A stretch of DNA of 64,000 nucleotides from an uncultured Eubacteriales bacterium (GTDB taxonomy: Bacteria; Bacillota; Clostridia; Tissierellales; Peptoniphilaceae): the NCBI GenBank assembly GCA_900540185.1, contig UQFH01000002.1:16817-80816 (forward strand), written 5' to 3'. Made by a program: the position numbers and the translations under genes. The notes under the pieces were generated by a model. That model made no database searches. It was not told where the DNA came from and saw only the letters and a list, made by a program, of their open reading frames with translations. Shown in pieces: positions 3,645 to 53,345 of the stretch. Position 1 is the first letter of the stretch. The number at the start of each line of letters is the position of its first letter.

Positions 3645-4490
3645 ATGACTAAAAGAATTTTATCATTAGCATTGGCAGTAGTTATGGCTGCAACAACTTT
3701 CTCATTCAGTGCATTTGCTGCTGACAAGAAAGAAGAAAAGAAAGCTGAAACAAAAAAAGTAAGTTTATTTGAAAAATACAACAAAAACGTTTCAGACGCT
3801 TTCTCAAATGCTGCAAAAGCAAACAAAGGCGACTCAGCTTTGACACAAAAACAAAAAGAATTCATCAGCCTTTCAGTCGGAATCGCTGTAAAATGCGACG
3901 CTTGCACAAAGACACACTCAAAACTCGCAGTTCAAGCAGGTGCTACAATGGAAGAACTTGCTGAAATGGTTGGCGTTTGCGTTATGATGGGTGGCGGACC
4001 TTCAACTGCTTTCGGAAGAGTTGCTCTTGAAACTGCAAAAGAAGCAGGCGCAAAAGAAGCTGAAAAGAAAATCGAATTAAAACCGATTACAGAATTTAAA
4101 GGCGAACTTGGCGACGACATCGTTAGCGTTAATAAACCTGAATTTGCTAAAAAATATTCATTAATCGGCAAAAACGTTATGAGAGACGGATATCTCACAG
4201 TTAAAGAAAAAGAACTTATCTCTTTAGCAATCGCTATCGCTGTAAGATGTGACGGATGCATGAAATACCACGGAGCACAATGTGCAAGAGTGGGTGTTAC
4301 AGAAGCTGAACTCGCTGACCTCGTAGCATGCTGCAAAATCATGGGTGGCGGACCTGCATCACCTGCATCAAGAACAGCTATTCAAGTTTACCAAGACGAA
4401 AAAGCTGTAATGGAAAAAGAAGCTAAAGAAGCAAAAGAAGCTAAAACAGAAAAGAAAGCTGAAACAAAAACAGAAAAGAAAACAAAATAA
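3645..4490 (+). CDS. secreted protein with two tandem carboxymuconolactone decarboxylase (AhpD-like) domains and Lys/Glu-rich linker and tail
   Basis: GGAGG RBS. Signal peptide MTKRILSLALAVVMAATTFSFSAFA. Two copies of the core motif (VKCDACTKTHS...CVMMGGGP and VRCDGCMKYHG...CKIMGGGP). KEEKK-type repeats at both ends. Confidence 0.8.
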   Translation: MTKRILSLALAVVMAATTFSFSAFAADKKEEKKAETKKVSLFEKYNKNVSDAFSNAAKANKGDSALTQKQKEFISLSVGIAVKCDACTKTHSKLAVQAGATMEELAEMVGVCVMMGGGPSTAFGRVALETAKEAGAKEAEKKIELKPITEFKGELGDDIVSVNKPEFAKKYSLIGKNVMRDGYLTVKEKELISLAIAIAVRCDGCMKYHGAQCARVGVTEAELADLVACCKIMGGGPASPASRTAIQVYQDEKAVMEKEAKEAKEAKTEKKAETKTEKKTK

Positions 4491-4507
4491 GAATTTGTTT
4501 TGAAAGG

Positions 4508-4533
4508 TGCCTGGAGAGAGGCGCCTTTTTTAT
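4508..4533 (+). terminator. rho-independent terminator of the CMD gene
   Basis: GGTGCC-TGGAGAGA-GGCGCC hairpin followed by TTTTTT. Confidence 0.6.
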
Positions 4534-5200
4534 TTGCGGTTATTTTATTTGCGGTTATTTTCGCTATAAATGCTTGATTCAATATTTTAGTCGCTGCGAC
4601 GTACTTACCAGTACGCCTCACTCCTAAAATATTTCATCTAAGCGTTTCTCATCGAAAATTCCTCGCAAATAACGGTGTATGTAGGGGAAAAATTTTTTGA
4701 TTTTTCAAAACTTACCGTTGTTAATATTTTTATATATTATATGTACACATAAATGGGCGGCGCAAACGTTATAGCCCTAACCCGTGCTTTTTGATTTGAC
4801 AAAATCAAAAACACGATGGTAGGACTTATACAAAGACGTCCGACGACATTTCGACGAACAGGAGAAATGAGTCGTTGACGTCGATTGTGCATGCGCCGTT
4901 ACGTTCTGGGAAGCACACAATGATGTGTAGAATCATATGTCGTAAAAGTTATACGCGAAGATAAAATTTTAAGGTTAGAATAAATTACTGTGAATGAATT
5001 ATTGTTGGATGTGATTACGTTATTTGTAGCGTCGGGCTACGTCTCGACGCATGAGATATAGATAAACACACGCGTATAAACAATTTAAAAATAGATTCAA
5101 ATAAACGCCGTCTGTAACGGCGACCAGTTTTTTTATCCATCGAGCAGAAATCTGTGATTTCGCCTGGAGATGAGATAAAAAGGTGTATCGCCGCCAATAA
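4531..5200. repeat. intergenic repeat cluster A (units R1, R4 with a nested insert, R3, R2a)
   Basis: R1 at 4531-4674, R4 at 4754-4940, R3 at 4985-5100 and R2 at 5104-5198. Each is matched by copies at other loci in the window (see findings). Confidence 0.85.
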
Positions 5201-5347
5201 GGAAAAGTTGTGGGGTTGTAATTTACATAAATGCCATAACCGGCGCCGGGAAATTTTTATTCCTAGCGTCGTAACATATGTCGGTCGCTATGTCGCGCAT
5301 TAGAATGTATAAAATATAAATAAATGTATTTTACATAAAAGCCCATG

Positions 5348-5376
5348 TTGACAAACAAAAAACATGGGCATATAAT
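5348..5376 (+). promoter_or_regulatory. canonical sigma-A promoter of tRNA-Val
   Basis: TTGACA, 17 nt, TATAAT. The -35 box lies inside a 9-bp inverted repeat GCCCATGTT...AACATGGGC. Confidence 0.65.
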
Positions 5377-5391
5377 ATGTTTATAAGATAT

Positions 5392-5468
5392 GGACTGTTA
5401 GCTCAGTTGGTTAGAGCATTGCATTCACATTGCAGGGGTCACAAGTTCGAGTCCTGTACAGTCCACCA
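5392..5468 (+). tRNA. tRNA-Val (anticodon CAC, read by eye)
   Basis: Cloverleaf: acceptor GGACTGT/ACAGTCC, D-arm GCTC...GAGC, anticodon loop TTCACAT, T-loop TTCGAGT, 3' CCA encoded. Confidence 0.8.
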
Positions 5469-5474
5469 ATTTGC

Positions 5475-5526
5475 GTTCCGGTTGGAGCGCTTTTTTTATG
5501 TACGGCGGAAGATCCGCCTTTTTATT
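5475..5526 (+). terminator. tandem hairpin terminators after the tRNA
   Basis: GCGTTCC-GGTT-GGAGCGC followed by T7, then GGCGG-AAGAT-CCGCC followed by T5. Confidence 0.55.
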
Positions 5527-5533
5527 TGTATAT

Positions 5534-6460
5534 TTATTTTATTTCGTTCATTATTTCTCTAAGTTTTTTTAAATTGTTTTCCTCATATGGGCTGTGGCCG
5601 GCGGCGTCAGTTATATACAGTTCGACGTTTTCAAGTTTTTGTGCGAGGCAATATGCGCCGATCGGGCGACAGTCGATGTCGTATCTTCCGTGCACAATAT
5701 ATGTTTTTATATTTTTTATTTTGTCGGCGTTTTCCAAGATGTAGTTATCCGTCGGGAAGAAGTTTTTGTTTTTAAAGTAAAAACATTCGTAAAATGCAAG
5801 GCTCATTTTTTGCGCGGTATATTCGTTGTTCACTTCTCCGGGAAGGAGTGTCACAAGTCCGTCTTCCCAATTTGCCCATTTTATTGCGGCGGCTTTCTTT
5901 TTTTCTTCGTCGTCGGACATAAATATTTCGTAGTATGAGTCCACGATTTTATCCCTTTTGTTTTCCGGAAGAAAGTTTTTGTATTCTTCGAAAAGCTCCG
6001 GGAAGTAGTAGCTTGCGCCTTCCTCATAGAGCCAATTAACATCTTCCTCTCTACCCAAAAATATTCCTCTTAAAACCAGATTTTCCACTCTTTCCGGGTG
6101 CGCGATTGCATAGAGAAGGGCGAGCGTTGAGCCGTAGCTTCCGCCGAAAACTGTCCATTTTTTTATGCCGAAATGCTCTCTAATTTTTTCCATGTCCTCA
6201 ACCGTTTGAAAAGGGGTGACATTTTTTGTTTCAAGAAACGGTGTAGATTCACCGGTTCCCCTTTGGTCGAAAAGTATGACGCGGTGATTATCGTTAAAAA
6301 ATTCGAGCGATTTTTCGCCGACCGATCCTCCCGGTCCACCGTGCAAAAAAATCACGGGTGCGCCGTTTTTGTTTCCGCAATCCAAAACGTTAAGGGTGTG
6401 CGTTTCATCAACTTTCAGTTTTATTTTTTCATTAATTTTCATTTCTCCCTCCGTCAACAA
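5534..6460 (-). CDS. pip: proline iminopeptidase (prolyl aminopeptidase, S33 alpha/beta hydrolase)
   Basis: 308 aa. Contains HGGPGG and the GGSYGSTLAL nucleophile elbow. Family-level match. Confidence 0.85.
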   Translation of the reverse strand: MLTEGEMKINEKIKLKVDETHTLNVLDCGNKNGAPVIFLHGGPGGSVGEKSLEFFNDNHRVILFDQRGTGESTPFLETKNVTPFQTVEDMEKIREHFGIKKWTVFGGSYGSTLALLYAIAHPERVENLVLRGIFLGREEDVNWLYEEGASYYFPELFEEYKNFLPENKRDKIVDSYYEIFMSDDEEKKKAAAIKWANWEDGLVTLLPGEVNNEYTAQKMSLAFYECFYFKNKNFFPTDNYILENADKIKNIKTYIVHGRYDIDCRPIGAYCLAQKLENVELYITDAAGHSPYEENNLKKLREIMNEIK

Positions 6461-7352
6461 AATCTATATTTCTTCTTTTGAGTTCTTTCTGAATTGAGCT
6501 TATGACTGCGCATTTGTGTTTTGTCCAGTCAGGCACGATGAGATTTTCCCGAACCGGGTCGCCGGTGATTCGGTGGTAAACTATGTCGCGCGGCAAAATT
6601 TCCATTCCGTCACAAACAAGATTTACATATTCCTCTTCGGTGAGTACTGGAAACGGTTTTTCGGTGTAGAGTTTTCCGAGTCTAGAGTGTTTGTCGACGT
6701 AAAGACTGTGAATTTTCACGCCGAACGGATGAAGCTCTTTTACATATTCAAATGTTTCAAGCATGTCCTCTCTCGTTTCGGTCGGAAGTCCCAAAATCAT
6801 GTGCACGATGATTTTAAATCCGTCGTCAATCAGCTCGCGCGCTTTTTTGTCAAAGTATTCGTGGCTGTATCCGCGATTTATAAAATCCAAAGTTTTTTCG
6901 TGGATGGATTGCATGCCGAGCTCAATCCAAGTTTCCGTTTTTTTATCATACTCTTTTAGAAGTTCGATTCTTTCAAGGTCCATACAGTCCGCTCTCGTCG
7001 CAATGTCGAGTCCCACGATGTCTTTGTCAGAAAGCGCTTCGTCGTAGATTTTTCGAAGCTTCGGCACAGGTTTATATGTGTTTGTAAAGTTTTGAAAATA
7101 CGCGATGTATTTTTCGACTTTCCACTTTCCGCCGTACATAGTTTTTTGGTGCGCGATTTGCTCAGAAATAGTTTTTGCGCCGATGCAACCTGCAAATTCA
7201 CCGCTTCCTCTTTCGGAGCAGTAGATGCATCCCAAGTTGCTCAAAGTTCCGTCTCTGTTTGGACATGTGAAGCCACCGTCAAGACAGACTTTTCCGACTT
7301 TAACTCCAAATTTATTTTTTAAATAGCTGCTTAGTGAATAATATCTTTCCAT
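6432..7352 (-). CDS. TIGR01212-family radical SAM protein
   Basis: 306 aa. N-terminal Cys cluster CPNRDGTLSNLGCIYCSE. Overlaps the pip start by 29 nt. Confidence 0.8.
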   Translation of the reverse strand: MERYYSLSSYLKNKFGVKVGKVCLDGGFTCPNRDGTLSNLGCIYCSERGSGEFAGCIGAKTISEQIAHQKTMYGGKWKVEKYIAYFQNFTNTYKPVPKLRKIYDEALSDKDIVGLDIATRADCMDLERIELLKEYDKKTETWIELGMQSIHEKTLDFINRGYSHEYFDKKARELIDDGFKIIVHMILGLPTETREDMLETFEYVKELHPFGVKIHSLYVDKHSRLGKLYTEKPFPVLTEEEYVNLVCDGMEILPRDIVYHRITGDPVRENLIVPDWTKHKCAVISSIQKELKRRNIDFVDGGRNEN

Positions 7353-7532
7353 ATTTAAATTATACTACAAAGTTTTAAATATTCATAATTCGAATAAATT
7401 TTTATAAATAGCTGTTATTTTTTAGAAAATGGGGGTATAATATAAATAGTTAGCACTCACCGATAGAGATTGCTAATAATGAAACTCTAATTACTGAAAT
7501 TAGAGTTTATCTATGATATGGAGGTAGTTATT

Positions 7533-9462
<1,930 letters not shown>

Positions 9463-9469
9463 TAAAATA

Positions 9470-9508
9470 AAATGTGTAGCATACCATGTGCTGCACTTTT
9501 TTATTGCA
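9470..9508 (+). terminator. groESL terminator
   Basis: GTGTAGCA-TACCATG-TGCTGCAC hairpin followed by TTTTTTATT. Confidence 0.5.
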
Positions 9509-9511
9509 ACA

Positions 9512-9545
9512 AAAAAACGTGCAGATTTTACAATTTGCACGTTTA
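9512..9545 (-). terminator. purC terminator
   Basis: Minus strand: AACGTGCA-AATTGTAAAATC-TGCACGTT followed by TTTTTTT. Confidence 0.6.
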
Positions 9546-9554
9546 TATTACATA

Positions 9555-10241
9555 CTATTTTACGTCTTCCAAAAGGATTTTTTCGAGTTTCAAAGGTTCG
9601 ATATATTCGTCGCCTTTGTATGCACGCATGTTTCCGCCTGAAATTTCGTCGATGAGTGCGACTTTACCGTCGATCATACCGAATTCGAATTTAATATCGT
9701 AAAGTTCGAGACCCTTTTTATCGAGTTCTTCTTTAACAAATTCGCCGATATGTTTTGCAAGATCAACAAGTTCTTCGTATTCGTCGCCTGTCATAATTCC
9801 GAGCATTTCAAGAGCGTCCTTTGTGATTAGAGGATCGTCTCTGTCGTCATCCTTTAGAGTGATTTCAACATATGAAGGAAGCTTCATTCCCGATTCGGCA
9901 TATTGTCCGTAACGTCTGATGAATGAGCCGACAGCTCTGTATCTTACAATAACTTCAACACCGTTTCCGAAAACTTTTGCCTTCTTTACAACAGCTTCAT
10001 TTTTTTCAGTGTCTGCTGAAACGAAGTGTGTGTTTAAGCCCTTTTCGTTAAGTTTTTCATAGAAGAATTTTGTAAGCATGCAAGCTGAGTGTCCTGCGCC
10101 TTCCATAGTGAGTCCGACATGATTTTGACCCGGGTCGAAAACTCCGTCCTTTCCGGTTACATCGTCTTTAAACTTGAGTAAAACTTCTTTGTCGTTTAAT
10201 TCATAAACGTCTTTTGTTTTTCCTTGGTATAATTTTTTCAA
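9555..10241 (-). CDS. purC: phosphoribosylaminoimidazole-succinocarboxamide synthase (SAICAR synthetase)
   Basis: 228 aa beginning MKKLYQGKTKDVYELND, which is PurC-typical. Confidence 0.9.
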   Translation of the reverse strand: MKKLYQGKTKDVYELNDKEVLLKFKDDVTGKDGVFDPGQNHVGLTMEGAGHSACMLTKFFYEKLNEKGLNTHFVSADTEKNEAVVKKAKVFGNGVEVIVRYRAVGSFIRRYGQYAESGMKLPSYVEITLKDDDRDDPLITKDALEMLGIMTGDEYEELVDLAKHIGEFVKEELDKKGLELYDIKFEFGMIDGKVALIDEISGGNMRAYKGDEYIEPLKLEKILLEDVK

Positions 10242-10363
10242 AGTAAACCCCCCAATCCACTCATTATTTTATACCTAAGCGGCGCGTGTTGTCAAGTGAT
10301 TCAAGATATATTTTCGAATATATGTAAAATTTGTGGTATAATTAAATTAAAAAGGAGAGAAAA

Positions 10364-11548
10364 ATGGATATAAAAGAATTGCGCCGCGAGTTTCACAAAA
10401 TCCCTGAAACAGGCTTTAAAGAATATAAAACTACAAGAAAAATTATTTCTTATTTAAAAAACTTTGAAAACGGAAAACTTATTTTCGGAAAAAGGCTTTA
10501 TGGCAAATCCGAAGTTTCAAGCGATGCGGATATCGACGAGGGTTACACCGGAGCTTTGATAGAGTTCGGACACGCACCGTTTTTTATGTTCCGCTCGGAC
10601 ATCGACGCCCTTCCGGTTTTGGAATCGACGAGCGATGAACATGTTCCGAAAAATTTAGGATTTCGCTCGGAAATCGACGGAAATATGCACGCCTGCGGTC
10701 ACGACGGACACATTTCAATCGCTTTAAAACTTGCGGAAATATTCAATAAAGAGCCAAATCTTTATTCGGGAAGGGGTGTAAGAATTTTATTTCAACCCGC
10801 GGAAGAAGGAGTGCAAGGCGCTGCAAAAATTCCGGAGTTTGTGACAAAAGACGTTGACAATATGATTGGATACCACATAGGACTCGGCGAGCCCGAAGGC
10901 TTTATAGGAGTCGGAAGCACGAATTTTCTTGGAGTCAAAAAACTTCTCGTAAAATTTTTCGGAAAAGCCGCACACGCCGCAAACAATCCGGAAAATGGAA
11001 TTTCAGCACTAAATATGGCGCTCGCATTTATAAATTTAAATCGAACTTTGATTGAAGATTCAAAGAAAAAGCGCGTGATGAATATCGGGATGATTCACGG
11101 AGGAAATGCGCTAAACATCATAATGGATGAAATAACTCTCGGCATCGACCTTCGCGCAATCGACAACGATGTGCTGGACGAAATGTACGAAACGATTTTG
11201 AAAACTTCGAGAAATATTTCCGAGGCGGTCGGTGGAAGTTCGACTGTTGAGATTATCGGGGAAGCTTGGGGGTATGTTGAGGAAGACGGAGAGCTCACCG
11301 AAAAATTGTCGAAAAATTTAAGAGATGCGGGATTTAAAACGACCATTAATCCGAATTTCGGCGCAAGCGAAGACGTGACGAAATATATTCTGGATGTTAA
11401 AGAAAACGGCGGAAAAGCAATTCACCTTCTTTTCGGCGCCGACCTTGCGGGGAGTCACCATAGCTCGACCTTTGACTTCGACGACGAGAATCTCGAAAAA
11501 TATTTCAATGCAACACTTTTAACATATGAATCCATGCTCAAAAATTAA
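10364..11548 (+). CDS. M20-family amidohydrolase (N-acyl-amino acid amidohydrolase-like)
   Basis: 394 aa. HACGHDGH metal-binding motif and M20D architecture. Confidence 0.8.
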   Translation: MDIKELRREFHKIPETGFKEYKTTRKIISYLKNFENGKLIFGKRLYGKSEVSSDADIDEGYTGALIEFGHAPFFMFRSDIDALPVLESTSDEHVPKNLGFRSEIDGNMHACGHDGHISIALKLAEIFNKEPNLYSGRGVRILFQPAEEGVQGAAKIPEFVTKDVDNMIGYHIGLGEPEGFIGVGSTNFLGVKKLLVKFFGKAAHAANNPENGISALNMALAFINLNRTLIEDSKKKRVMNIGMIHGGNALNIIMDEITLGIDLRAIDNDVLDEMYETILKTSRNISEAVGGSSTVEIIGEAWGYVEEDGELTEKLSKNLRDAGFKTTINPNFGASEDVTKYILDVKENGGKAIHLLFGADLAGSHHSSTFDFDDENLEKYFNATLLTYESMLKN

Positions 11549-11568
11549 GCGGTTATGCCGCTTTTTTG
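11549..11568 (+). terminator. terminator
   Basis: GCGGTTATGCCGC followed by TTTTTTG. Confidence 0.5.
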
Positions 11569-11660
11569 TGAGATTTTTTTCGACACTTATTTTTCAACTC
11601 GAGAGACCTGTGTTTGAAAAAAACACCGTTTTAATATAAAATAGAAGAGGAGGAATTTAT

Positions 11661-12641
11661 ATGATTTATGTTATAAATAAGAGCGTTGATCCTTCTTTTA
11701 ATCACGCGCTTGAAGAATATTTTTTAAAGGATACTAGCGAGTCGGTTTTTATGATTTGGCAAAATGAGCCGACGGTTTTGATCGGGAGAAATCAAAATTT
11801 GGAGCTTGAGATAAATACAGATTTTACAAAAGCACATGATATGCACGTTGTGAGAAGACTTTCGGGCGGCGGCACGGTTTATTGCGATTTGAACAACTGT
11901 CAATACACTTTTATCACCAATCGCGACGACAAGAATGAAAATCTTTTTAAAAGTTTTGCGCACCCCGTTGTTTTGGCTCTAAAAAAATTGGGGCTCGATG
12001 CGGATTTTACGGGTAGAAATGACATAATGATTGGCGACAAAAAAGTTTCCGGGAATGCTCAGTACCGCTACAAGGACAGAATCATTCACCACGGAACTCT
12101 TCTTTTTGATGCGGATATGGAGCTTTTGTCGGGTTCGATGAAGGCGCGAGAAATAAAATTTATAGATAAAAATGTTCATTCGCATCGTGCGCATGTGGGT
12201 CTTATAAAAAATTACGTGGACATGGATGTGCATGAATTTATAGATTATATTGCAAAAAATATTGTGGATTATCATAATATTTCTGAAATTCGCGAGCCGT
12301 CAAATGATGAGCTCGAGGGTTTGAAGAAGTATTTGTCGGACTTTCCGGATTTTAACAAAACGGGATATGACAAGGAGCATTCGAGAAAATATATGGCGAA
12401 GAAATATCCGTTCGGACTTGTTGAGTACGGGCTCGACGACGAGGACGGAAAGATAAAAAAACTGAAGATTATGGGAGACTTCTTTTTGAATAATGAATTG
12501 GAGCCGTTTTTGAGTTCGATTCGGGGTATAGATATAGAGTCGATTGAAGACGAGCTCAAATTTGATATCGGAGATTTTATAATCGGCATGACAAATGACG
12601 ATTTTATTTCCGATTTGAAGCATTTATATAGAGGAGAATAG
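11661..12641 (+). CDS. lplA: lipoate-protein ligase A
   Basis: 326 aa. RRLSGGGTVYCD... is typical of LplA/BPL_LplA_LipB. Confidence 0.85.
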   Translation: MIYVINKSVDPSFNHALEEYFLKDTSESVFMIWQNEPTVLIGRNQNLELEINTDFTKAHDMHVVRRLSGGGTVYCDLNNCQYTFITNRDDKNENLFKSFAHPVVLALKKLGLDADFTGRNDIMIGDKKVSGNAQYRYKDRIIHHGTLLFDADMELLSGSMKAREIKFIDKNVHSHRAHVGLIKNYVDMDVHEFIDYIAKNIVDYHNISEIREPSNDELEGLKKYLSDFPDFNKTGYDKEHSRKYMAKKYPFGLVEYGLDDEDGKIKKLKIMGDFFLNNELEPFLSSIRGIDIESIEDELKFDIGDFIIGMTNDDFISDLKHLYRGE

Positions 12642-12643
12642 TT

Positions 12644-13504
12644 ATGAGTGAGAAAAAAACTAAGCATTTAAAAAAGCCGGAGTGGATTAAGGTCAAACTT
12701 CAGGGCAACCAAAATTCCAACACGGTTGAACATACACTTTTAAATTATAATTTAAACACTGTTTGCTCGGAGGCGAATTGTCCGAACAAGATGGAGTGCT
12801 ACGCTGCGAGAACTGCGACATTTATGATTCTCGGGAAAAATTGTACGAGAAATTGCAGATTTTGCAATGTTACTACAAAGAAGCCGGAGCCTGTGAACAA
12901 GTTTGAACCGCAGGAAGTTGCTTTTGCGGTACAGAAACTCGGACTTAAACATGCGGTCGTGACGAGTGTCGACAGAGACGATTTGGAGGATTACGGCGCG
13001 GAGCATTTCAAGCGCGTGTGCGAGGAGATAAAAAAAGTAAATCCGGGCACGACAGTCGAGCTTTTGATTCCGGATATGCACGCAGTGCACGAACATTTGG
13101 ACACGATTTTCAGCGCAAAGCCGGACATCATAAACCACAATGTTGAAGTTGTGCCGGAGTTTTTTGAGGAAATTTGTCCGCAGTCAAATATGGACTGGAG
13201 TCTCGAGGTTTTGAGATATGCAAAGGAAAAGGGATTTATCACGAAGTCTGGCATGATGGTCGGATTCGGCGAAACCGAAGAGATGGTTGTAAATCTCATG
13301 AAAATGCTTCGAAGCGTTGACTGCGACATGCTCACAATCGGGCAATATCTCCAACCTTCGAGAAAACACGCCGACGTTGTGGAATATGTAACGCCGGAGC
13401 AATTTGAAAGATACAAAGAGCTCGGACTTGAACTCGGATTTAAGAGCGTTTCGAGCGGACCTTTCGTGCGAAGCAGCTACCACGCGCAAATGTTGGAAGG
13501 ATAG
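12644..13504 (+). CDS. lipA: lipoyl synthase
   Basis: CPNKMECY plus CTRNCRFCNV radical-SAM clusters. Confidence 0.92.
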   Translation: MSEKKTKHLKKPEWIKVKLQGNQNSNTVEHTLLNYNLNTVCSEANCPNKMECYAARTATFMILGKNCTRNCRFCNVTTKKPEPVNKFEPQEVAFAVQKLGLKHAVVTSVDRDDLEDYGAEHFKRVCEEIKKVNPGTTVELLIPDMHAVHEHLDTIFSAKPDIINHNVEVVPEFFEEICPQSNMDWSLEVLRYAKEKGFITKSGMMVGFGETEEMVVNLMKMLRSVDCDMLTIGQYLQPSRKHADVVEYVTPEQFERYKELGLELGFKSVSSGPFVRSSYHAQMLEG

Positions 13505-13505
13505 A

Positions 13506-14327
13506 ATGAAAAGAGTTAGAATTTTTTTGAATGAATACCCGTCGTCAATCGAAGTTGCAAACGAACTCGAGGAGCGCTTTCGCTCGCTCGGCGTTGAGGC
13601 GGAACAGGTCTATATAAAATCGCTCGACAACAAGGGCGGAGATTTTGACGTAAACATTGTTGTTGGGGGCGACGGTACATTTTTGCAATCGGTGAGACTG
13701 AGCGAATTTCATTCGGCGCCGTTTATCGGAATAAACACCGGCGGACTTGGATTTTTCCAGGAAATCGGCGTTGACGAAATTCCGACGCTTGTGCATATGC
13801 TGAAAAAAGAAGAATTTATTACCGACGAAATGAAACTCATAAAATCCGTCGCAACCACAAGTGACGGCAGCGAACTCTCGTTTTATGCGATAAACGAAAT
13901 TCTTATAAAGGGAATAAATTCGAAAGTCATCCACATGGACGTCTATGTCGAAAGAAATTTCCTGCAAAAATTTTCAGGAGACGGCATCATCATCTCGACA
14001 TCCGTCGGCTCGACCGCATACAACTTCTCGGTCGGCGGTGCGATTGTGCACCCGAGCATCGAAACAATGCAAATGAGTCCGCTCGCACCGATTTCAAGTG
14101 CGGCATATCGTTCGCTTCTAAATCCGATCGTCATGCCGGGAAATTACACCATCGACATCTACCCTGAAACGAAATACGAAAAATCCGTCTTGATAGTCGA
14201 AGACGGCGTTGAAAACTTTGTCAGAAACATTCGAAAAATCGAAACCACAATCAGCAACACTTTCGTGAACAGACTGCATTTGGATAAGGATATTTATTGG
14301 AAGAACTTAAAAGACAAATTCATTTAG
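13506..14327 (+). CDS. nadK: NAD(+) kinase
   Basis: GGDGTFL and NEI/DGxxxSTxxGSTAYS motifs. The real start is probably the ATG at 13506, directly after the lipA stop. The ORF-track start at 13404 overlaps lipA. Confidence 0.85.
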   Translation: MKRVRIFLNEYPSSIEVANELEERFRSLGVEAEQVYIKSLDNKGGDFDVNIVVGGDGTFLQSVRLSEFHSAPFIGINTGGLGFFQEIGVDEIPTLVHMLKKEEFITDEMKLIKSVATTSDGSELSFYAINEILIKGINSKVIHMDVYVERNFLQKFSGDGIIISTSVGSTAYNFSVGGAIVHPSIETMQMSPLAPISSAAYRSLLNPIVMPGNYTIDIYPETKYEKSVLIVEDGVENFVRNIRKIETTISNTFVNRLHLDKDIYWKNLKDKFI

Positions 14328-14332
14328 AAAAA

Positions 14333-14790
14333 TTTGCGGTCTATTTTGCGATAAACGACTGATCTCGTGTTTTAGTCGTTGCGGCATATTTACCAATATG
14401 CCTCACTCCAAAAACACTCAATCTAGCCGTTTCTCATCAAAATATCCTCGCAAATGGGTGGGGATTAATTGTAGAAAATGGAAAACACAGCACGTAACGG
14501 CGACCGGTTTTTTATCCATCGAGCAGAAATCTATGATTTCGTCGTGAAATGAGATAAAAAAGTGTATCGCCGCCAATATGGAGAATGAAATGGATAGATT
14601 TTGAAACCGCGAAAGGATGGTTGAAAATAAAAATCGTAAATATGTTATACGTCAACATTAGCTCCATGTGAAAATAAATTAATGTATATGGTATATTGTT
14701 GTATGGGATTACGCTCTTTGTAGCGTCGCATTACATTGCGACGCATGAGATATAGACAAACAGACGTGTATGTGCAATAAAATTTTGCAA
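14333..14790. repeat. intergenic repeat cluster B (diverged R1, R2a, R3)
   Basis: R1 at 14333-14455, R2a at 14490-14578 and R3 at 14672-14790 match cluster A units. Confidence 0.8.
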
Positions 14791-14876
14791 TTAAATAAAA
14801 GCAGCACGTGGGAGTATCGCCGCAAAAAATATTTACAATCAAAATTTATGTTTAATACAAATTTTCAGGAGGAATT

Positions 14877-16265
14877 ATGAAAGAAAAAGAATTGATTTAC
14901 AGAGACGAAGTTGACTCTTTAGGTGTTGTTAAGGTTCAAAGTGAGAATCTTTGGGGTGCTGTAACTGAAAGAGGAAGAAAGATGTATGCGGTGACGGACG
15001 AGACTGTCGATATGGAAATTGTAAGAGCGGTCGCAATGATAAAAAAAGCGGCGGCTATCGCAAACGAAAAGCTCGGCGTTTTGAGCACGGAAAAGCGTGA
15101 CAGAATAAGTCTTGCGGTTGACCAAATTCTCACGGGAAAATTTGACGACAATTTTCCGCTTTCCGTATATCAAACGGGTTCCGGAACTGCAACGAACATG
15201 AATGTGAATGAGGTTATAAAAAATATAAATAATTTGGGACTCATAGGCGACGACTCTGTTTCGCTTCATCCGAATGACGATGTGAACAAGTCGCAAAGCA
15301 CAAACTGTGTTTTTCCGACGGCGATAAATGTTGCGGTAATACTAAATTTGAAAAAGGGGCTTATTCCGGCGCTCGAAAATCTTGTGACAACTTTGGACAG
15401 AAAAATTGAAGAGTTTGACGGCGTGATAAAAATCGGAAGAACTCACCTTGAAGATGCAACGCCGATTTTGATTTCAGATGAATTTATAGCATATCGCGAC
15501 ACATTTATGAGAGACATCGAAAAAATCAAGGAGCAAATTGAATATTTGAGCCATGTGCCTCTTGGAGGTACCGCTGTGGGCACGGGACTAAATACGCCGC
15601 CGGGATATGACAAGCTTGCGGTGGAAGCTCTTGGCGAAATTGCCGGAATAGATCTGATTCCTATGAAAGACAAATTTATGGGGCTTTCAATGAAAAATGA
15701 CATTGCAACCGCATATGGCGCTATCGCGTCTCTGTCGATGAACTTGTTTAAATTTTTAAATGATATACGCCTGATGCAGTCGGGTCCAAGAGCCGGTTTT
15801 TCCGAAATTATTATCCCTGCAAATGAACCGGGAAGTTCGATAATGCCGGGAAAAGTAAATCCGACTCAAATTGAAATGCTCACACAAATCGCATTGAGAG
15901 TCTATGGTGCAAATGCGACAATTCTATTTGCCTCAGGTCAAGGAAACTTTGAGCTGAACGTCTACATGCCTCTCATTGCAAACCAATTTATAAAAACGGC
16001 TCGGGAACTCGCAAACGGAATTGAAAGTTTCAACGAAAATTGCCTCAAAGGTATAAAATTGAACAGAGAAAAGATAGAAAAATACCTTGAAGAAAGCTTG
16101 ATGCTCGTGACTGCGCTAAATCCACACATCGGCTACATCAACAGCGCGAAAATCGCAAAAAATGCATATGAAAAGGGAATAACACTCAAACAATCTGCAC
16201 TGGAGTTGGAACTGCTTACGGAAGAGGAGTTTGATATTATAGTCGATCCCACAAAAATGGTTTAA
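14877..16265 (+). CDS. class II fumarate hydratase / aspartate ammonia-lyase family enzyme
   Basis: 462 aa. GSSIMPGKVNPTQIE signature. A fumarase-versus-aspartase assignment is not secure from sequence alone. Confidence 0.8.
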   Translation: MKEKELIYRDEVDSLGVVKVQSENLWGAVTERGRKMYAVTDETVDMEIVRAVAMIKKAAAIANEKLGVLSTEKRDRISLAVDQILTGKFDDNFPLSVYQTGSGTATNMNVNEVIKNINNLGLIGDDSVSLHPNDDVNKSQSTNCVFPTAINVAVILNLKKGLIPALENLVTTLDRKIEEFDGVIKIGRTHLEDATPILISDEFIAYRDTFMRDIEKIKEQIEYLSHVPLGGTAVGTGLNTPPGYDKLAVEALGEIAGIDLIPMKDKFMGLSMKNDIATAYGAIASLSMNLFKFLNDIRLMQSGPRAGFSEIIIPANEPGSSIMPGKVNPTQIEMLTQIALRVYGANATILFASGQGNFELNVYMPLIANQFIKTARELANGIESFNENCLKGIKLNREKIEKYLEESLMLVTALNPHIGYINSAKIAKNAYEKGITLKQSALELELLTEEEFDIIVDPTKMV

Positions 16266-16270
16266 AATTA

Positions 16271-16905
16271 ATTTGCGCGCTATTTTGCGATAAACGGTTG
16301 ATTCAATATTTCAGTCGCTGCGACGTACTTGCCAGTACGCCTCACTCCTAAAATATTTCATCTAACCGTTTCTCATCAAAATATCATCGCAAATAACAGT
16401 GTGTTTTAATTGTATAAAATGGCAAACACAGCCGTAGCGGGACGGTTCTGCGAATCCTCCTGCCTAAACACCTGCGCAATCAAAAATTAAGTTTACGGCG
16501 CATGTCATCAAAATATCCTCGCAAATTATTGGATAGTATTTGCGGTTTGCAGTCAACGTCTGCGACTCATTTCTCCTATTCGTCGAAATGTCGCCGGACG
16601 TCTTTGCGGAAGACCTACCATCGTGTTTTTGATTTGAAAAATCAAAAAGCACGGGTTAGGGCTATCTTTTCGCGATAAACGCTTGATTCATATTTTAGTC
16701 GCTGCGACGTACCTATCAGTACGCCTCACTCCTAAAATATTTCATCTAAGCGTTTCTCATCGAAAATTCCACGCAAATAACAGTGTGTATAAATTGTATA
16801 AAATTACAAACGCCATCCGTAACGGCGACCGGTTTTTCGACGCACGAAATAGAAATCTTTGATTTTGTAATTGAGTGCAGAGAAAAGCGTATCGCCGCTA
16901 TAATG
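16271..16905. repeat. intergenic repeat cluster C (R1, R2c plus R1b tail, inverted R4 inner piece, 5'-truncated R1, R2b)
   Basis: R1 at 16271-16398 and 16664-16782. 16536-16665 is the reverse complement of 4770-4885. R2b at 16809-16903. Confidence 0.85.
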
Positions 16906-17200
16906 GAGAATTGTTTGGGGTTTTTTATTTCATCAAAAATCAAACGACAAAACCGGTGCAATGACACCGCTCTTCCTTACGTTGTAACGTATTTCGTCAC
17001 GCTACGCCGTGCTTGCGAATGAAGACAAGTCAATAATTTAAACTTTTCATTCATTTTTCAAAATATTTTCTCGATTTTTTTATTTTCAAATTATATCATT
17101 CGTTATTTTCGTTGTGTGTTGGGTAATAATATTTGTGAAGGGTTAAAAATGTTGTGCGAATAGTTTGCACAGTTTTTAATTTATTTAAGGAGGTATTAAT

Positions 17201-17710
17201 ATGGAAGAAAGAAAAGGTGCTATCACATTTATGAAGGATCCGATGACTTTGATTGGACCGGAAGTAAAGGTTGGCGATAAGGCTCAAGATTTTGAAGCAA
17301 CAAAGAAGGATTTAAGCGATTTTTGTCTATGTGAATTAAAGGGAAAGACTGTTGTTATCAGCGTTGTTCCTTCAATCGACACGCCGGTTTGTGAAGAACA
17401 AACCAAGATTTTCAACAAGGAAGCTTCTGATTTGAAGGATGTTGTTATTCTTACAATCAGCTGCGATTTGCCGTTTGCACAAGCAAATTTCTGCGCTGCA
17501 AAGGGTATTGACAATTTAATTATGTTGTCAGATTACAAGGCACACGATTTCGGAACGAAGTACGGCTTTTTGATTAAGGAACTCATGCTTCTTGCAAGAG
17601 GTGTCGTTATCATCGACAAGGAAGGCGTTGTGAAGTATGTAGAATATGTTCCTGAAGCAACGAATTTGCCTGATTTTGACAAGGCTCTTGAAGCTTTAAA
17701 GAGTTTATAG
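17201..17710 (+). CDS. tpx: thiol peroxidase (atypical 2-Cys peroxiredoxin)
   Basis: 169 aa. VPSIDTPVCEEQ active site. Confidence 0.9.
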   Translation: MEERKGAITFMKDPMTLIGPEVKVGDKAQDFEATKKDLSDFCLCELKGKTVVISVVPSIDTPVCEEQTKIFNKEASDLKDVVILTISCDLPFAQANFCAAKGIDNLIMLSDYKAHDFGTKYGFLIKELMLLARGVVIIDKEGVVKYVEYVPEATNLPDFDKALEALKSL

Positions 17711-37114: not shown

Positions 37115-37140
37115 AAGGCGTTTAATGCGCCTTTTTTATT
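37115..37140 (+). terminator. fprA terminator
   Basis: AAGGCG-TTTAATG-CGCCTT followed by TTTTT, immediately followed by an R1b repeat head. Confidence 0.6.
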
Positions 37141-37840
37141 TGCGGTCTATTTTGCGACCTGCTTGCAAACGTCAATTATTTGATTGCTCGGAGTGCACTT
37201 GAGCACACCTGCGCAATCAAAAATTGAGTATGCGGCGCATCTCATCAAAATATCCTCGCAAACTGATTTTATATCTGCGGTCTATATGTGAATTATTATA
37301 TAAAAGAAGAAAACGCCGCCGTAGCGGGACGGCACTGTGTGTCCTCCCGCAAAAAAACCTCACTCCTAAAATATTTCATCTAAGCGTTTCTCATCGAAAA
37401 TTCCTAGCAAATGGATTTTATAATTGCGCGTAATTAATTGTAGAAACTTGAAAACACTGCCGTAGCGGGACGGTTCTGCGAATCCTCCCGCCTAAACACC
37501 TGCGCGATCAAAAATTGAGTTTGCGGCGCATCTCATCAAAATATCCTCGCAAACTGATTTTATATTTACGGGATTTTCGCGATAAAGTTTTGAGGCTGTA
37601 TTATTTTTTGTACGCAGAACGTAGCGGCTGGCATACGTTACAACGTGAAAAAGAAATCTTTGATTTCGTTTTTGAGCGAGAAGTAACGACGTCCTGCCGC
37701 AAAAAGCCTCACTCCTAAAATATTTCATCTAAGCGTTTCTCATCGAAAATTCCTCGCAAATAACGGCGAAGATTAATTGTAGAAAATTGCAAACGCCGTC
37801 CGTAACGATGGCACTTTGTGTCCCGCTGCCAATAGGGAGA
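37137..37840. repeat. intergenic repeat cluster D (R1b, R2c plus R1 tail, R2c plus R1b tail, R1 tail, R2c)
   Basis: R1b at 37137-37265. R2c heads at 37301-37350, 37452-37494 and 37790-37838. R1 and R1b tails at 37358-37413, 37496-37555 and 37708-37764. Confidence 0.85.
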
Positions 37841-39129: not shown

Positions 39130-39172
39130 ATATAAATTATTGCACGTGATGGGCGTGCAATTTTTTTGTATT
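39056..39172 (+). repeat. left copy of a ~117-bp direct repeat (serpin 3' end plus terminator)
   Basis: Near-identical to 40765-40883. Confidence 0.9.
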
Positions 39173-39239
39173 AATTATAAAATTTCAGACAATACTTTAA
39201 ATCTCATACTATATCATCGAATAAACAATATAAAAATAT

Positions 39240-39248: not shown

Positions 39249-39280
39249 AAGTATAATATTTGCCGGAGAGGAGGGATACT

Positions 39281-40699: not shown

Positions 40700-40764
40700 A
40701 GTTAATAAGAAAATCGACTTGTCGCATGAAAAACAAAATAGTCGGATAAAAGTAATGAACTCAT

Positions 40765-40883
40765 TCTCGACAGTCCACATTTTATAGTCACGACAACAAA
40801 CGGTGTGATTACATTTGTTGCGCTTGTTGTGTAGTAGATTTTTAAAATTATTGCACGCATATCGCGTGCAATTTTTTTATATT
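40765..40883 (+). repeat. right copy of the ~117-bp direct repeat
   Basis: Duplicates the serpin 3' end (with a premature TAG) and the terminator hairpin. Confidence 0.9.
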
Positions 40884-41053
40884 TTTTGGAAAGGAAATTT
40901 TAATTTTATCTTAATCTTTTTCTATTGACAAAGTCTTCTTAAGTATATATAATATTTATTGAGAATCAAGGGGCGAACCCCTTGACTTTTTGGTGTTTAT
41001 TATTGTATAATAAACTATATCTCAGATTTATAAAAGCTTGGGAGGTGAAGCGA

Positions 41054-44152: not shown

Positions 44153-44214
44153 TTTAAGTATAATAGAGATAGTTTAATAGGGAATGAAGTTTCCCGTTAA
44201 TTGCAACTGCTGAT

Positions 44215-44253
44215 GACTTCTACAAATTTTTGTAGGGGGAGTCGGCTTTTTTT
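44215..44253 (+). terminator. hairpin plus T-run between the radical SAM gene and the antiporter
   Basis: GACTTCTACAAA-TTTTT-GTAGGGGGAGTC followed by GGCTTTTTTT. The T-run ends 3 nt before the GGAGG RBS of the antiporter. Confidence 0.45.
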
Positions 44254-46034: not shown

Positions 46035-46580
46035 GGCATTTGCGGTCTAATTTGCAAATTATAAATTGTATAACGTTGCACGTCGTCCGTAACGGCGACC
46101 GGGTTTTCGACGTACGAAATAGAAATCTATCATTTCGTAATTGAGTGCAGAGAAAAGTGTATTGCCGTAAAAGAAGGGAATATTGGGATAAGATTTTGGT
46201 GAGATATTGTATTGACACAGCGTTGTTGGTGGTGATACATATTCCAAAAACTCAAAAATTGGCGGCGCAACGTAGTGCGCCGTTACGTTCTGGGAAACTC
46301 ACAATGATGTGTGAATTAATATATTGTAAAAATTTTATAAGGATTAAATATTACAATGTGTGTTTGAATATATTAATGTGTTCTGTTTATGTATAAAATG
46401 ACAAAATTTGTAGCGGCGGCTACGTCCCGATGCATGAGATATGGATAAACACACGTGTATAAACAATATAAAATAGATTCAAATAAACGCTGTCCGTAGC
46501 GGCGACCGGGTTTTTTATCCATCGAGCAGAAATCTATGATTTCGTCGTGAGATGAGATAAAAAGGCGTATCGCCGCCAAG
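46035..46580. repeat. intergenic repeat cluster E (R1 head, R2b, R4 lacking the inner piece, R3, R2a)
   Basis: R2b at 46078-46170, R4 at 46255-46320, R3 at 46400-46485 and R2a at 46488-46580. Confidence 0.85.
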
Positions 46581-52580: not shown

Positions 52581-52606
52581 AGGAACCGGCTTTCGCCGGT
52601 TCTTTT
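52581..52606 (+). terminator. terminator
   Basis: GAACCGGC-TTTC-GCCGGTTC followed by TTTTTT, then an R1 repeat. Confidence 0.65.
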
Positions 52607-52607
52607 T

Positions 52608-52945
52608 TATTTGCGGGCCTTTTCGCGATAAACGCTTGATTCAATATTTTAGTCGCTGCGACATATTTATCAATATGCCTCACTCCTAAAATATTTCATC
52701 GTAAGCGTTTCTCATCGAAAATTCCACGCAAATTACTTTTTTGCGTGTATTATATATGTAAAATATCTCAATGTGAAAATAAATTACTGTAAATGAATTA
52801 TTGTTGTATGCGGTTACGTTGTTTGTAGCGTCGGGCTACGTCCCGACGCATGAGATATAGATAAACATACGCGTATAAGCAATAAGGTAATACAAATTTT
52901 ACACGCCGTCTGTAACGGCGGGCACTGTGTGTCCCACCCCCCCTT
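52608..52945. repeat. intergenic repeat cluster F (R1, R3, R2c)
   Basis: R1 at 52608-52735, R3 at 52772-52890 and an R2c head at 52901-52945. Confidence 0.85.
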
Positions 52946-53300: not shown

Positions 53301-53345
53301 ATATATGATGTGACCAAGGTCACAATTATAAATAGGGAGGATCAT

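Follow-up and report, generated by a model that had tools for sequence, protein, structure and literature searches.

A discrete non-coding unit of 118-120 nt with two hairpins, here called the cassette, sits within other repeats of the gut bacterial genus Ezakiella, where its boundaries are fixed, its hosts are REP-type hairpins and a second specific junction, and orthologous sites are found filled or empty. The window, by which we mean the whole 64,000-nt stretch of DNA analysed, carries two copies. A preliminary description had reported a repeat, R4, with and without an inner piece, together with a reverse-complement copy of that piece; the three strings that it quoted are all present where it placed them, and its view of the inner piece as a discrete unit nested in another repeat is borne out by fixed boundaries in two hosts and by filled and empty orthologues. 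The copies in the window and the hairpins of the first are as follows.

4770..4889, plus strand: cassette copy 1, subfamily 1, 120 nt, TATAGCCC...GATTGTG, nhmmer 138.7 bits
about 4776-4826, plus strand: hairpin A of copy 1, predicted fold, z about -5 to -6
about 4830-4888, plus strand: hairpin B of copy 1, predicted fold, z about -5 to -6
16548..16666, minus strand: cassette copy 2, subfamily 2, 119 nt, the minus strand reading GATAGCCC...GACTGCA

The two copies match on opposite strands (4771-4874 versus 16665-16563) at 91% over 104 nt (E = 3e-32), and a gapped alignment stretches the match to ~116 nt. The edges of the cassette were set from ~75 copies with distinct flanks and from filled/empty pairs. 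The edges given earlier were roughly right, with the bracket 2 nt late and with CATG (4 nt) belonging to the host loop and stem. Independent copies are plentiful, with ~90 of full length in Ezakiella coagulans and related metagenome contigs, at least 15 of which lie in the fetched genome parts of E. coagulans DSM 20705; all are 116-120 nt long and none is truncated or long. In R4-hosted copies the cassette is 96.9% identical, whereas R4 apart from the stem reaches 73.8%. A comparison of the window with E. coagulans DSM 20705 gives 99% identity for the cassette versus 78-88% for shared coding DNA. The cassette, with an identity far above that of its hosts and of coding DNA, is therefore younger, or much more constrained, than its hosts. 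By inspection it holds only ORFs of 3-6 codons, and a coding reading was rejected as the AGGAGAAATG motif opens a 3-5-codon ORF at most. A role as carrier of promoter or terminator cargo was likewise rejected, as no promoter- or terminator-like signal was found in or at the unit.

The core of R4 is a REP-type hairpin and the insertion lies in its loop, which goes beyond the preliminary description. This host has a GC-rich 7-9-bp stem, a hexaloop ATGTRA or ACGTAG, and a GTAG or GTAA head on the opposite strand. The cassette enters between hexaloop positions 4 and 5 (ATGT/RA, where the slash marks the entry point) and lies in a single orientation throughout. The host hairpins in the window are listed below.

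4716..4953, plus strand: whole R4 module (left body, REP, right body ACGTTCTGGGAAGCACACAATGATGTG; repeat entries I3 and D16)
4756..4902, minus strand: filled REP-type hairpin around cassette copy 1, its loop split by the cassette
4756-4764: 5′ arm of the filled REP, GGCGGCGCA
4765-4769: half-loop AACGT of the filled REP
4890-4891: half-loop CA of the filled REP
4892-4900: 3′ arm of the filled REP, TGCGCCGTT
4899-4902: TTAC of the filled REP, the minus strand reading the GTAA head
46261..46286, minus strand: empty REP-type hairpin of the short R4 copy, GGCGGCGCA-ACGTAG-TGCGCCGTT-AC
5026..5050, plus strand: empty REP, GTAG-CGTCGGG-CTACGT-CTCGACG-C
14720..14744, plus strand: empty REP, the plus strand reading GTA-GCGTCGCA-TTACAT-TGCGACGC
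52825..52849, plus strand: empty REP, the minus strand reading the hexaloop ACGTAG

The long and short R4 copies align at 94.6% (4892-4928 versus 46276-46312, E = 1e-11) and have the 5′ arm in common. The short copy, placed earlier at 46255, is genuine rather than a chance similarity, being one of many empty hairpins of the same type: REP-type hairpins in 584 kb comprise about 50 that are filled and at least 63 that are empty, the latter count including ~19 hairpins of other stem types with 10-nt loops. All REP copies in the window are intergenic. The TAC or TTAC ending (GTAG or GTAA on the other strand) was present in 7 of 7 hairpins in a search without a tail requirement, and stem positions 5 and 9 covary, such that the palindrome is kept through compensatory changes. 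In related contigs these palindromes form BIME-like mosaics and surround RAYT genes, one of which (L115) adjoins a unit identical to the empty hairpin at 46261..46286. REPs are defined as short GC-rich palindromes with the tetranucleotide GT[AG]G at their foot (PMC2817692, PMC3733652, PMC6006769), and the R4 host hairpins fit this definition in their GT[AG]G-type foot, their short GC-rich palindrome and their high-copy extragenic mosaics.

The second cassette copy also lies in a specific host site. The piece at 16536-16665 had been described as standing alone; in fact it lies within another conserved motif that serves as host, namely the junction J (TTTGCGGTT/TTTTCGCGATAAA), which forms the start of a repeat, D1.

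16537..16786, plus strand: D1-type repeat, its J start (TATTTGCGGTT/TTTTCGCGATAAACG) split by cassette copy 2
52598..52625, plus strand: empty J junction of the D1 copy after a TetR gene; the orthologous place in L051 bears a cassette

D1 copies free of the cassette occur in the window at 4544, 14329, 16268 and 52606, and 52 empty J sites were counted. The ends of the cassette hit identical alignment columns in the REP loop and in J, two unrelated hosts, and its orientation is fixed per host motif in all bracketed copies. The two orientations noted in the preliminary description are thus seen in the window but are not free, since copies 1 and 2 owe their opposite orientations to hosts of different kinds that are themselves oriented differently. 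The 5′ flank reads A[CT][GA]T in REP loops versus (G/A)AAA in J; a search for a conserved target at the junctions therefore yields two specific kinds of site but no common tetranucleotide (ANNT versus AAA(A) up to the entry point).

Filled and empty sites were compared between related strains. The clean case is L091 versus L092 and L045, with flanks 95-98% identical and unchanged and an empty site that reads GCGGTTAT/TTTCGCG. The insert in L091 is exactly 118 nt, with zero duplicated bases and at most 1 nt of ambiguity, and is bordered by about 11 nt of repeat on one side with unique sequence beyond. L062 and L033 differ in cassette occupancy after a 2.1-kb flank at 95.7% and have identical REP stems, L029 is filled where the window REP at 5026-5050 is empty, and in L051, at the place orthologous to 52598..52625, the D1 copy differs in addition to the cassette. 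In four of the five orthologous cases the difference in occupancy is accompanied by extra changes beside the cassette, be it in inner stem pairs, in the identity of the right-hand module, or through divergence of D1. Recombination or replacement fits these cases as well as insertion does, and a systematic synteny search showed that most pairs differ by whole modules and not by clean insertions. Part of the occupancy variation thus looks like recombination or replacement of repeat modules, an aspect that the preliminary description did not include.

For the site of copy 1 itself (4770-4889), no empty orthologue was found among contigs with the CMD gene and more divergent CMD homologues. The nearest of the other strains likewise carry the cassette there, the entire R4 module is missing from E. 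coagulans at the CMD-homologue locus, and same-strain contigs for the CMD gene are identical to the window and hence uninformative on this point. L020 was considered as an orthologue of the gap at 14327-14877 and dropped, as synteny breaks right after the NAD kinase gene. The presence or absence of the cassette is a DNA-level polymorphism, and the finding of the same cassette in two unrelated hosts, differing between near-identical strains, points to a DNA-level process.

Present in or precisely missing from REP loops and J, the cassette behaves as a small mobile element. We infer that Ezakiella carries it as a non-autonomous small mobile repeat, which spread by Y1/HUH single-strand movement followed by recombination, a reading that we regard as about equally likely to be right or wrong. 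In the primary movement, a Y1/HUH transposase supplied in trans, either a RAYT or an IS200/IS605-type TnpA, would cut or copy the cassette in single-stranded form and paste it elsewhere; the enzyme would recognise the near-terminal hairpins of the cassette and find its targets in single-stranded loops. Afterwards, homologous recombination or gene conversion between about 97%-identical copies would homogenise the cassettes, re-assort their flanks, and carry the cassette along with neighbouring repeat modules.

The near-terminal hairpins are strongly predicted with RNA as well as DNA parameters and show 5 doubly-changed pairs versus 1.2 ± 0.8 in shuffles. About 6-10 nt separate the 5′ end from the start of hairpin A, and 1-7 nt separate the end of hairpin B from the 3′ end. 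Terminal inverted repeats are absent (best local score of the first 40 nt versus the reverse complement of the last 40 nt, 5; shuffles, 5.9 ± 1.2), and the lengths of direct repeats flanking the cassettes equal those of a swapped-flank control, which indicates no target duplication. Y1 transposition (PMC6006769) and PATEs (PMC3119063) are both marked by subterminal hairpins without terminal inverted repeats or target-site duplications. Judged by sequence, hairpins A and B are unrelated to each other (similarity scores 6 and 5; shuffles, 6.5 ± 1.3) and neither resembles the REP. No GTAG-type guide was found at the foot of the cassette hairpins, and no convincing complementarity of the IS200/IS605 guide/cleavage-site kind was seen by inspection at the left end. 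The 3′ terminus TGY pairs and covaries with RCA immediately 5′ of hairpin B, although the counts for pair 61-119 (AU 24, GU 16, GC 15) track two lineages only. Orientation relative to the replication strand, considered as a sign of a lagging-strand mechanism, is weakly biased (27 versus 11) among non-independent copies.

As for the cognate transposase, neither the window nor the fetched loci of DSM 20705, which sample part of each genome, showed a RAYT gene, and a Pfam scan of 150 ORFs reports on the 25 commonest families, such that single-copy transposases may lie outside it. In four related contigs (L068, L071, L025, and L115), RAYT-like ORFs lie inside arrays of the same R4-type REPs. The REPs closest to the RAYT gene form an inverted pair in L068 and L071 but a direct one in L025 and L115, and the REP adjoining the gene in L071 is cassette-filled. 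These ORFs score above threshold for Pfam Y1_Tnp (27 bits; cut-off 23) and just under the 80-bit cut-off for NCBIfam REP_Tyr_transpos (77.1 bits), and their sole PDB match is the TnpA-REP structure 4ER8. RAYT is a plausible counterpart of the IS200/IS605-type TnpA suggested in the preliminary description and a candidate enzyme for the cassette. Scans of 185,579 genomes and of metagenome contigs found no autonomous or longer element with the cassette ends or hairpin A. Plasmid and phage collections gave no match, and a lone match to a viral contig was discarded as a chance 19-mer within coding sequence.

The same pattern could have arisen with no dedicated transposition, an explanation that we consider somewhat unlikely. 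The long forms of REP and D1 would then be variants of BIME-like mosaics, with a single ancient entry of the cassette per host, and long and short paralogues would have produced today's pattern by recombining homologously with one another, by ectopic gene conversion, or by deletion. Cassette sequences group by host type, with subfamilies following the host, and few truly independent insertions are therefore needed. Chimeric flanks in L017, L031, and L034, with left and right bodies re-assorted, indicate recombination between cassette copies. The changes in the adjacent repeat that coincide with most orthologous occupancy differences point the same way, as do the gain and loss between close strains of other modules (the D1 body, REP-B loops, and 450 nt of modules in L091), and concerted evolution could account for the contrast of 97% versus 74% identity. 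However, the L091 event, with its ~11 nt of repeat on one side, is a poor substrate for conversion, and entry into two unrelated motifs at exact boundaries would still be required. Intermediate copies, with subfamily-2-like cassettes in the REP loops of L019, L040, L052, and L074, further indicate more than two entries.

The closest analogue of the cassette in its features is SMR-A of Haloquadratum walsbyi, one of the “small mobile repeats” whose movement “remains enigmatic” and which nests in the palindromes of IS605-type elements and PATEs (Dyall-Smith et al. 2011, PMC3119063). SMR-A resembles the cassette in being about 110 bp long, non-coding, multi-copy and without target duplication, and it has a strong preference for near-terminal palindromes recognised by Y1 transposases (PMC3119063). 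The palindromes entered are those of PATEs and IS605-type elements for SMR-A and REP hairpins for the cassette. SMR-A is archaeal and has prominent terminal inverted repeats, whereas the cassette belongs to a Firmicute, has none, and uses an additional, non-palindromic class of site, J. By this analogy, the cassette might be a bacterial counterpart of SMR-A, a hyper-parasitic single-stranded-DNA element that homes to the hairpin loops recognised by Y1 enzymes and that is either moved by RAYT or interferes with RAYT-REP function; we think this proposal rather unlikely. If RAYT did move the cassette, it would be the first RAYT cargo other than REP/REPIN, and if the cassette were an SMR-A counterpart, the near-identity of its copies from different Ezakiella species would be due to selection acting on an active element and not to recent spread alone.

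PATEs are non-autonomous IS200/IS605 derivatives (PMC3119063; mechanism, PMC6006769). Like the cassette they lack terminal inverted repeats and target duplications, have palindromes near both termini, are too short for a transposase gene and show strain-specific insertions (PMC3119063). PATE palindromes are alike and resemble those of resident IS605-type transposons, whereas the cassette hairpins are unrelated and no parent IS was found; a conserved targeting oligonucleotide of 4-5 nt lies at the PATE 5′ end, whereas the 5′ flank of the cassette is not one oligonucleotide. The ends of IS200/IS605 elements are, like PATE palindromes, normally alike, which the cassette hairpins are not, and this speaks against the Y1 view.

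REPs and BIMEs associated with RAYTs, including REPtrons and REPINs, have been described in detail (Nunvar 2010, PMC2817692; Di Nocera 2013, PMC3733652; Bertels 2017, PMC5581495). The likeness here is a feature of the host hairpin of the cassette, with its head, 7-9-bp palindrome, mosaics, compensatory changes and embedded RAYT. REP loop length varies within families, with reported, family-specific loop variants of up to about 27 bp, whereas the loop here is filled by a 118-120-nt unit that also occupies a non-REP site.

Insertion sequences that target REPs include IS1397 and ISKpn1 (IS3 family) and the IS110/IS1111-family elements ISPpu9/10 and IS621. Their entry into REP hairpins is site- and orientation-specific, as is that of the cassette. 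These elements are, however, autonomous and protein-coding, the IS3-family members duplicate their target, and no such gene or non-coding end of bridge-RNA size lies beside the 120-nt cassette. REPs serve as IS targets in Pseudomonas, Neisseria, and Sinorhizobium (Di Nocera 2013, PMC3733652).

The conservation of the cassette could also reflect RNA function, with the unit being a structured-RNA domain (a small RNA or a cis-acting 3′- or 5′-UTR element) subject to modular RNA evolution. Conservation across species is very high, loop expansions are frequent in RNA families, and the hairpins are kept by compensatory and G·U changes, with G·U-type cells numbering 41 on one strand versus about 7 on the other. 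Against this, Rfam gave no match at the gathering score over the whole window and nothing of note at a permissive threshold (up to E = 5, positions 4400-5500), and promoter- and terminator-like signals are lacking in and at the unit. Copies face either way with respect to adjacent genes, 27 of 38 running antisense to the main coding strand. With the same cassette in two unrelated hosts and varying between near-identical strains, an RNA domain is very unlikely to be the explanation.

The preliminary description had called the mobility MITE-like, a label that the results do not support. A classical MITE moved by a DDE transposase would share with the cassette its small size, lack of coding capacity, high copy number, intergenic placement and nesting in other repeats, and some modular repeats have long and short forms differing by an internal block. 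The long forms of ERIC, for example, carry internal insertions at set positions. MITEs have terminal inverted repeats and usually target-site duplications, as opposed to the cassette, which has neither, and no related full-length IS was found, making this origin highly improbable. The bacterial MITEs and modular repeats compared here are RUP, Correia/NEMIS, ERIC, BOX, and bcr1 (PMC3733652). Chance similarity or an assembly artefact can practically be dismissed: assemblies often break in these repeats and L011 has N runs inside tandem R4 units, but E-values are 1e-32 or better, the structure recurs in dozens of independently assembled metagenomes as well as in the genome of an isolate, and long contigs identical to the window span it.

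Few bacterial repeat systems are as abundant, or as poorly understood, as REPs with their RAYT transposases, and the action of RAYT in vivo is unsettled. The present case is a Firmicute (Tissierellia) with GTAG- or GTAA-headed REP mosaics and RAYT genes, and Firmicutes are mentioned in neither Nunvar 2010 (PMC2817692) nor Di Nocera 2013 (PMC3733652). On top of this REP/RAYT system sits a second-order element, specifically in the REP loop. If a Y1 enzyme moves the cassette, it would provide a compact substrate (120 nt, two hairpins, defined junctions) for loop-targeted single-strand integration and would connect to the SMR-A elements of archaea, which are unexplained. If it spread by recombination only, it still illustrates how mosaic repeats are assembled and reshuffled. 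It would also help to explain the breaks that Ezakiella gut-metagenome assemblies have at these sites and the changes in gene order found there.

R4, a repeat built round a REP-type hairpin, occurs twice in the window, as the preliminary description had claimed: its right part at 4892–4928 matches 46276–46312 (94.6% identity, E = 1e-11), and both copies have the left arm GGCGGCGCA. The short copy contains a hairpin, GGCGGCGCA-ACGTAG-TGCGCCGTT; in the long copy the identical stem encloses an inner piece, here called the cassette, which folds as strong hairpins A and B. The cassette has two copies in the window, on opposite strands (4771–4874 versus 16665–16563; 91% identity, E = 3e-32), a match that lengthens to ~116 nt when aligned with gaps. 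All three quoted stretches lie where that description placed them, and its observation is confirmed with a sole correction: the inner piece is real, but its exact boundaries, from later evidence, are 4770–4889 and 16548–16666. The second copy, taken to stand alone, is also nested, in the junction (J) at the start of repeat D1, other copies of which are empty at that exact point. All repeat clusters in the window are intergenic.

Cassette copies, host sites and related repeats (window positions unless a contig is named; slashes mark cassette ends)
4770–4889, plus strand: cassette, in the long R4 copy (4716–4953)
16548–16666, minus strand: cassette, in J
46261–46286: hairpin of the short R4 copy, empty
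4544, 14329, 16268, 52606: D1 copies empty at the exact cassette point
16422–16473, 37309–37360, 37450–37501, and about 9190–9260 of contig L070: second REP family (D12), CCGTAGCGGGACGG-loop-TCCTCCCGCC
Context I (about 50 copies): ...CGNCG-NN-ATGT / TAWAGMCC...GAYTGTG / NA-NN-CGNCGYTAC
Context II (about 23 copies): ...TTATCGCRAAAA / GATAGCCC...GACTGCA / AACCGCAAAT

The host sites were analyzed in 75 copies with distinct flanks. In context I the cassette sits inside the hexaloop of a 7–9-bp GC-rich hairpin, always pointing the same way relative to the hairpin. Empty examples of this hairpin type are common, with the loops ATGTGA (14), ATGTAA (14), ATATAA (5) and ACGTAG (3). Context II is the start of D1 on the opposite strand, and 52 empty J junctions were counted. 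Because the cassette ends at identical alignment columns in both hosts, it is a discrete entity, a conserved, non-coding unit of 118–120 nt with two specific host sites and a fixed orientation. Mixed flanks, left of one context and right of the other, are seen in three loci (L017, L031, L034), and the bodies left and right of the host hairpin re-assort freely. The 69-nt repeat D14 (37132–37200 and 59745–59813, one after a flavoprotein gene and one after a 2131-aa ORF; 97% identical) shares its opening TATTTGCGGTCTATTTTGCGA junction with D1, a junction that the cassette fills in contig L097.

On the other strand, the host hairpin reads GTAG or GTAA followed by a palindrome, for example GTAG-CGTCGGG-CTACGT-CTCGACG at 5026–5050. 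By the published definition (PMC2817692, PMC3733652, PMC6006769), a REP is a short palindrome whose middle is non-complementary, with a stem mostly of 6–9 bp and GT[AG]G as the head at its foot; the host hairpin matches this definition. Its pairing is kept by compensatory changes (position 5, T-A in 15 and G-C in 15; position 9, G-C in 25 and A-T in 10). Clustering of long ORFs in the contigs collected reveals a 161-aa protein in six loci, with an HUH motif (MPDHVHLL), a tyrosine motif (YDYIxNNP) and two subfamilies about 50% identical. It scores 27 bits against Pfam Y1_Tnp (over the cut-off of 23) and 77 bits against the NCBIfam model "REP-associated tyrosine transposase" (RAYT; cut-off 80), and E. 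coli TnpA-REP (4ER8) is the one relative it has in the PDB.

The genes of RAYT subfamily A lie within arrays of cassette-hosting REPs. The nearest REPs are inverted in contigs L068 and L071, as in published REPtrons, and direct in L025 and L115, so that the "two inverted REPs" of REP/RAYT systems are found in two of the four contigs only. In L071 the REP adjoining the gene is filled, and L115, from a sample series in common with window-strain contigs, carries the exact unit GGCGGCGCAACGTAGTGCGCCGTTACG of window position 46261. Subfamily B genes are flanked by D12, which lies around the RAYT genes of L073, L069 and L023. D12 loops come in short (TTCTGTGAA or CACTGTGTG) and long (CATACGTTGTGACGWAAGGAACAACGATG) forms, which differ between the orthologous pair L070 and window 37309; loop insertions may thus be a general feature of these REPs. 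No RAYT gene is found in the window or in the sampled DSM 20705 loci, which represent part of each genome. The hosts shown are REP-type hairpins arranged as BIME-like mosaics, which in related contigs include RAYT genes, and the tested features other than the inverted-REP arrangement place the host hairpin among REP/BIME/RAYT systems. Group 1 RAYTs occur in Clostridia (PMC5581495); Firmicutes are unmentioned in Nunvar 2010 (PMC2817692) and Di Nocera 2013 (PMC3733652).

Among 185,579 species, each represented by one genome, a 20-mer of hairpin A matches only Ezakiella coagulans DSM 20705 (n = 12) and one Tissierellia MAG. The window comes from a related Ezakiella: coding DNA in common with DSM 20705 is 78–88% identical, and the nearest named relative of the carboxymuconolactone decarboxylase-family (CMD) protein is from E. 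coagulans (94%). A metagenome scan with a 19-mer gave 82 loci, and a profile search of the genome and metagenome sequences collected found about 90 cassette copies, all of 116–120 nt, with no autonomous or longer version among them; plasmid, phage and viral collections hold no cassette. A window copy is 99% identical to DSM 20705 copies. In R4-hosted copies the cassette is 96.9% identical versus 73.8% for R4 sequence outside the stem, which is not expected if the composite had been amplified as a single piece. Cassette sequences form two subfamilies that track host type, with a few intermediates.

Other features of the window and related contigs were noted. Only about 675 nt part the CMD gene of E. 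coagulans from the peroxiredoxin, Fe-ADH and asparaginase genes that come next; the window has 12.7 kb (4490–17201) in between, carrying tRNA-Val, groES/groEL, SAICAR synthetase (Pfam SAICAR_synt), NAD kinase, fumarase and other genes. The repeat clusters at both ends carry the two inverted cassette copies, and a repeat-mediated rearrangement is possible. These repeats break assemblies: many metagenome contigs (L003–L010, L110, L112, L114) stop 50–400 nt past the CMD gene, within the repeat cluster, and the DSM 20705 scaffold L011 has N runs between tandem R4-long units at about 7440–7535. Very large plus-strand ORFs lie at 20242–26721 (2159 aa) and 53310–59705 (2131 aa); the latter has repeat clusters on both sides, and L034 has a comparable 2233-aa ORF after a cassette copy. 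An 84-nt repeat (93% identical) with an adjacent 48-nt repeat (77%), the latter resembling a hairpin followed by a T-run terminator, occurs at 39048–39181 and 40756–40892, after the consecutive genes 37981–39129 (serpin-like) and 39260–40699. Tandem 258–276-nt repeats at 49719–50697 (four to five units, 62–73% identical) within the 952-aa ORF 47874–50732 suggest a repeated protein domain. At 44171–44229, just upstream of ORF 44265–45440, is a fluoride riboswitch (Rfam RF01734, 46 bits).

Empty and filled sites are both found in related strains, occupancy differing in five orthologous comparisons. That of L091 with L092 and L045 (kilobases of synteny, flanks 95–98% identical) is a clean event: where the empty site has GCGGTTAT/TTTCGCG, exactly 118 nt stand at the slash in the filled one, with zero duplicated bases. 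Between L062 and L033, a 2.1-kb flank (95.7% identical) leads into identical REP stems; the empty loop is ATGT-GA and the filled one ATGT-(120 nt)-CA, and the module on the right differs. L029 is filled where the window REP 5026–5050 is empty (surrounding DNA 95.8% identical), but divergence is above background in the innermost two pairs of the stem and in some 60 nt of the repeat next to it. At the window's J-like sites near 37281 and 52600, L070 and L051 have a cassette, with other differences nearby. The presence or absence of the cassette between strains is thus a DNA-level difference, with at least one perfectly clean junction. The search for an empty orthologue of the site at 4770–4889 gave none: the cassette is present in the closest strains too, and E. 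coagulans has no R4 module at this place. The host repeats themselves have been recently gained or lost, since the D1 body at 4562–4687 is missing from L110 and L111, strains about 99% identical in adjoining sequence, the break falling at the ...GCGGTTATTTT/ junction where the cassette inserts elsewhere. L091 also carries about 450 nt of other mosaic modules (13500–13953) inserted in one of its D1 copies, which are missing from the orthologous D1 of L092 and L045.

The cassette has neither a TIR (explicit test) nor a target duplication above the swapped-flank control, and no autonomous copy in the sequences searched. We favor a non-autonomous element that would be moved in trans by a Y1 transposase, with the hairpin loop as its natural single-stranded target; recombination between copies would afterwards homogenize and reshuffle the cassettes. 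This mode of movement is favored because Y1/HUH single-strand transposition (PMC6006769) and its non-autonomous derivatives, the PATEs (PMC3119063), are typified by precise junctions and near-terminal hairpins with neither TIR nor TSD, because the loop offers a single-stranded target, and because genes for a Y1 enzyme lie among the host REPs. Weighing against it, hairpins A and B are unlike each other (no similarity in an explicit test) and unlike the REP; no single conserved target tetranucleotide is common to both site classes; and the RAYT-like Y1 genes show no link to the cassette. Moreover, four of the five occupancy differences could be explained equally well by module replacement through recombination. 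The chief alternative, that modular repeats recombine and convert one another without dedicated transposition, draws on these four and is quite possible, if on the unlikely side. That the cassette is specifically a RAYT-dependent or RAYT-parasitising loop-targeting element is a tentative notion, and somewhat more doubtful.

An RNA domain would account for the conservation but leaves the DNA-level behavior unexplained. Folding gives z-scores near −6 with RNA and −5 with DNA parameters. Paired cells in the hairpins amount to 98.7% versus ≤54% with partners slid, and covariation is modest (five doubly changed pairs versus 1.2 ± 0.8 in shuffles), both figures being inflated by sequence relatedness. 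G·U-type cells number 41 on the top strand versus about 7 on the other, a difference that points to folding of the top strand. With respect to the inferred replication strand, cassette orientation has only a weak bias (27 versus 11). Rfam gives no match at gathering scores in the whole window, nor at E up to 5 in 4400–5500. No promoter- or terminator-like signal lies within the cassette, the CMD terminator (4502–4529) and a perfect tRNA-Val promoter (5348–5376) both being outside it. A classical MITE is contradicted by both defining tests, TIR and TSD; of the MITE-like mobility first proposed, the nesting and the DNA-level movement stand.

Our literature search found no description of Ezakiella repeats. 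The loop variation published for REPs stays inside single families and reaches no more than about 27 bp, and autonomous ISs target REPs (PMC3733652). PATEs are partly alike, but the cassette differs in its unrelated palindromes, and no parent IS was found. The closest functional analogue is SMR-A of Haloquadratum, about 110 bp, without target duplication, inserted within near-terminal palindromes of PATEs and IS605-type transposons by a mechanism termed "enigmatic" (PMC3119063); unlike SMR-A, the cassette lacks TIRs and occupies a second class of site. The cassette is thus placed with small mobile repeats that are non-autonomous and nested in palindromes of the Y1 type.
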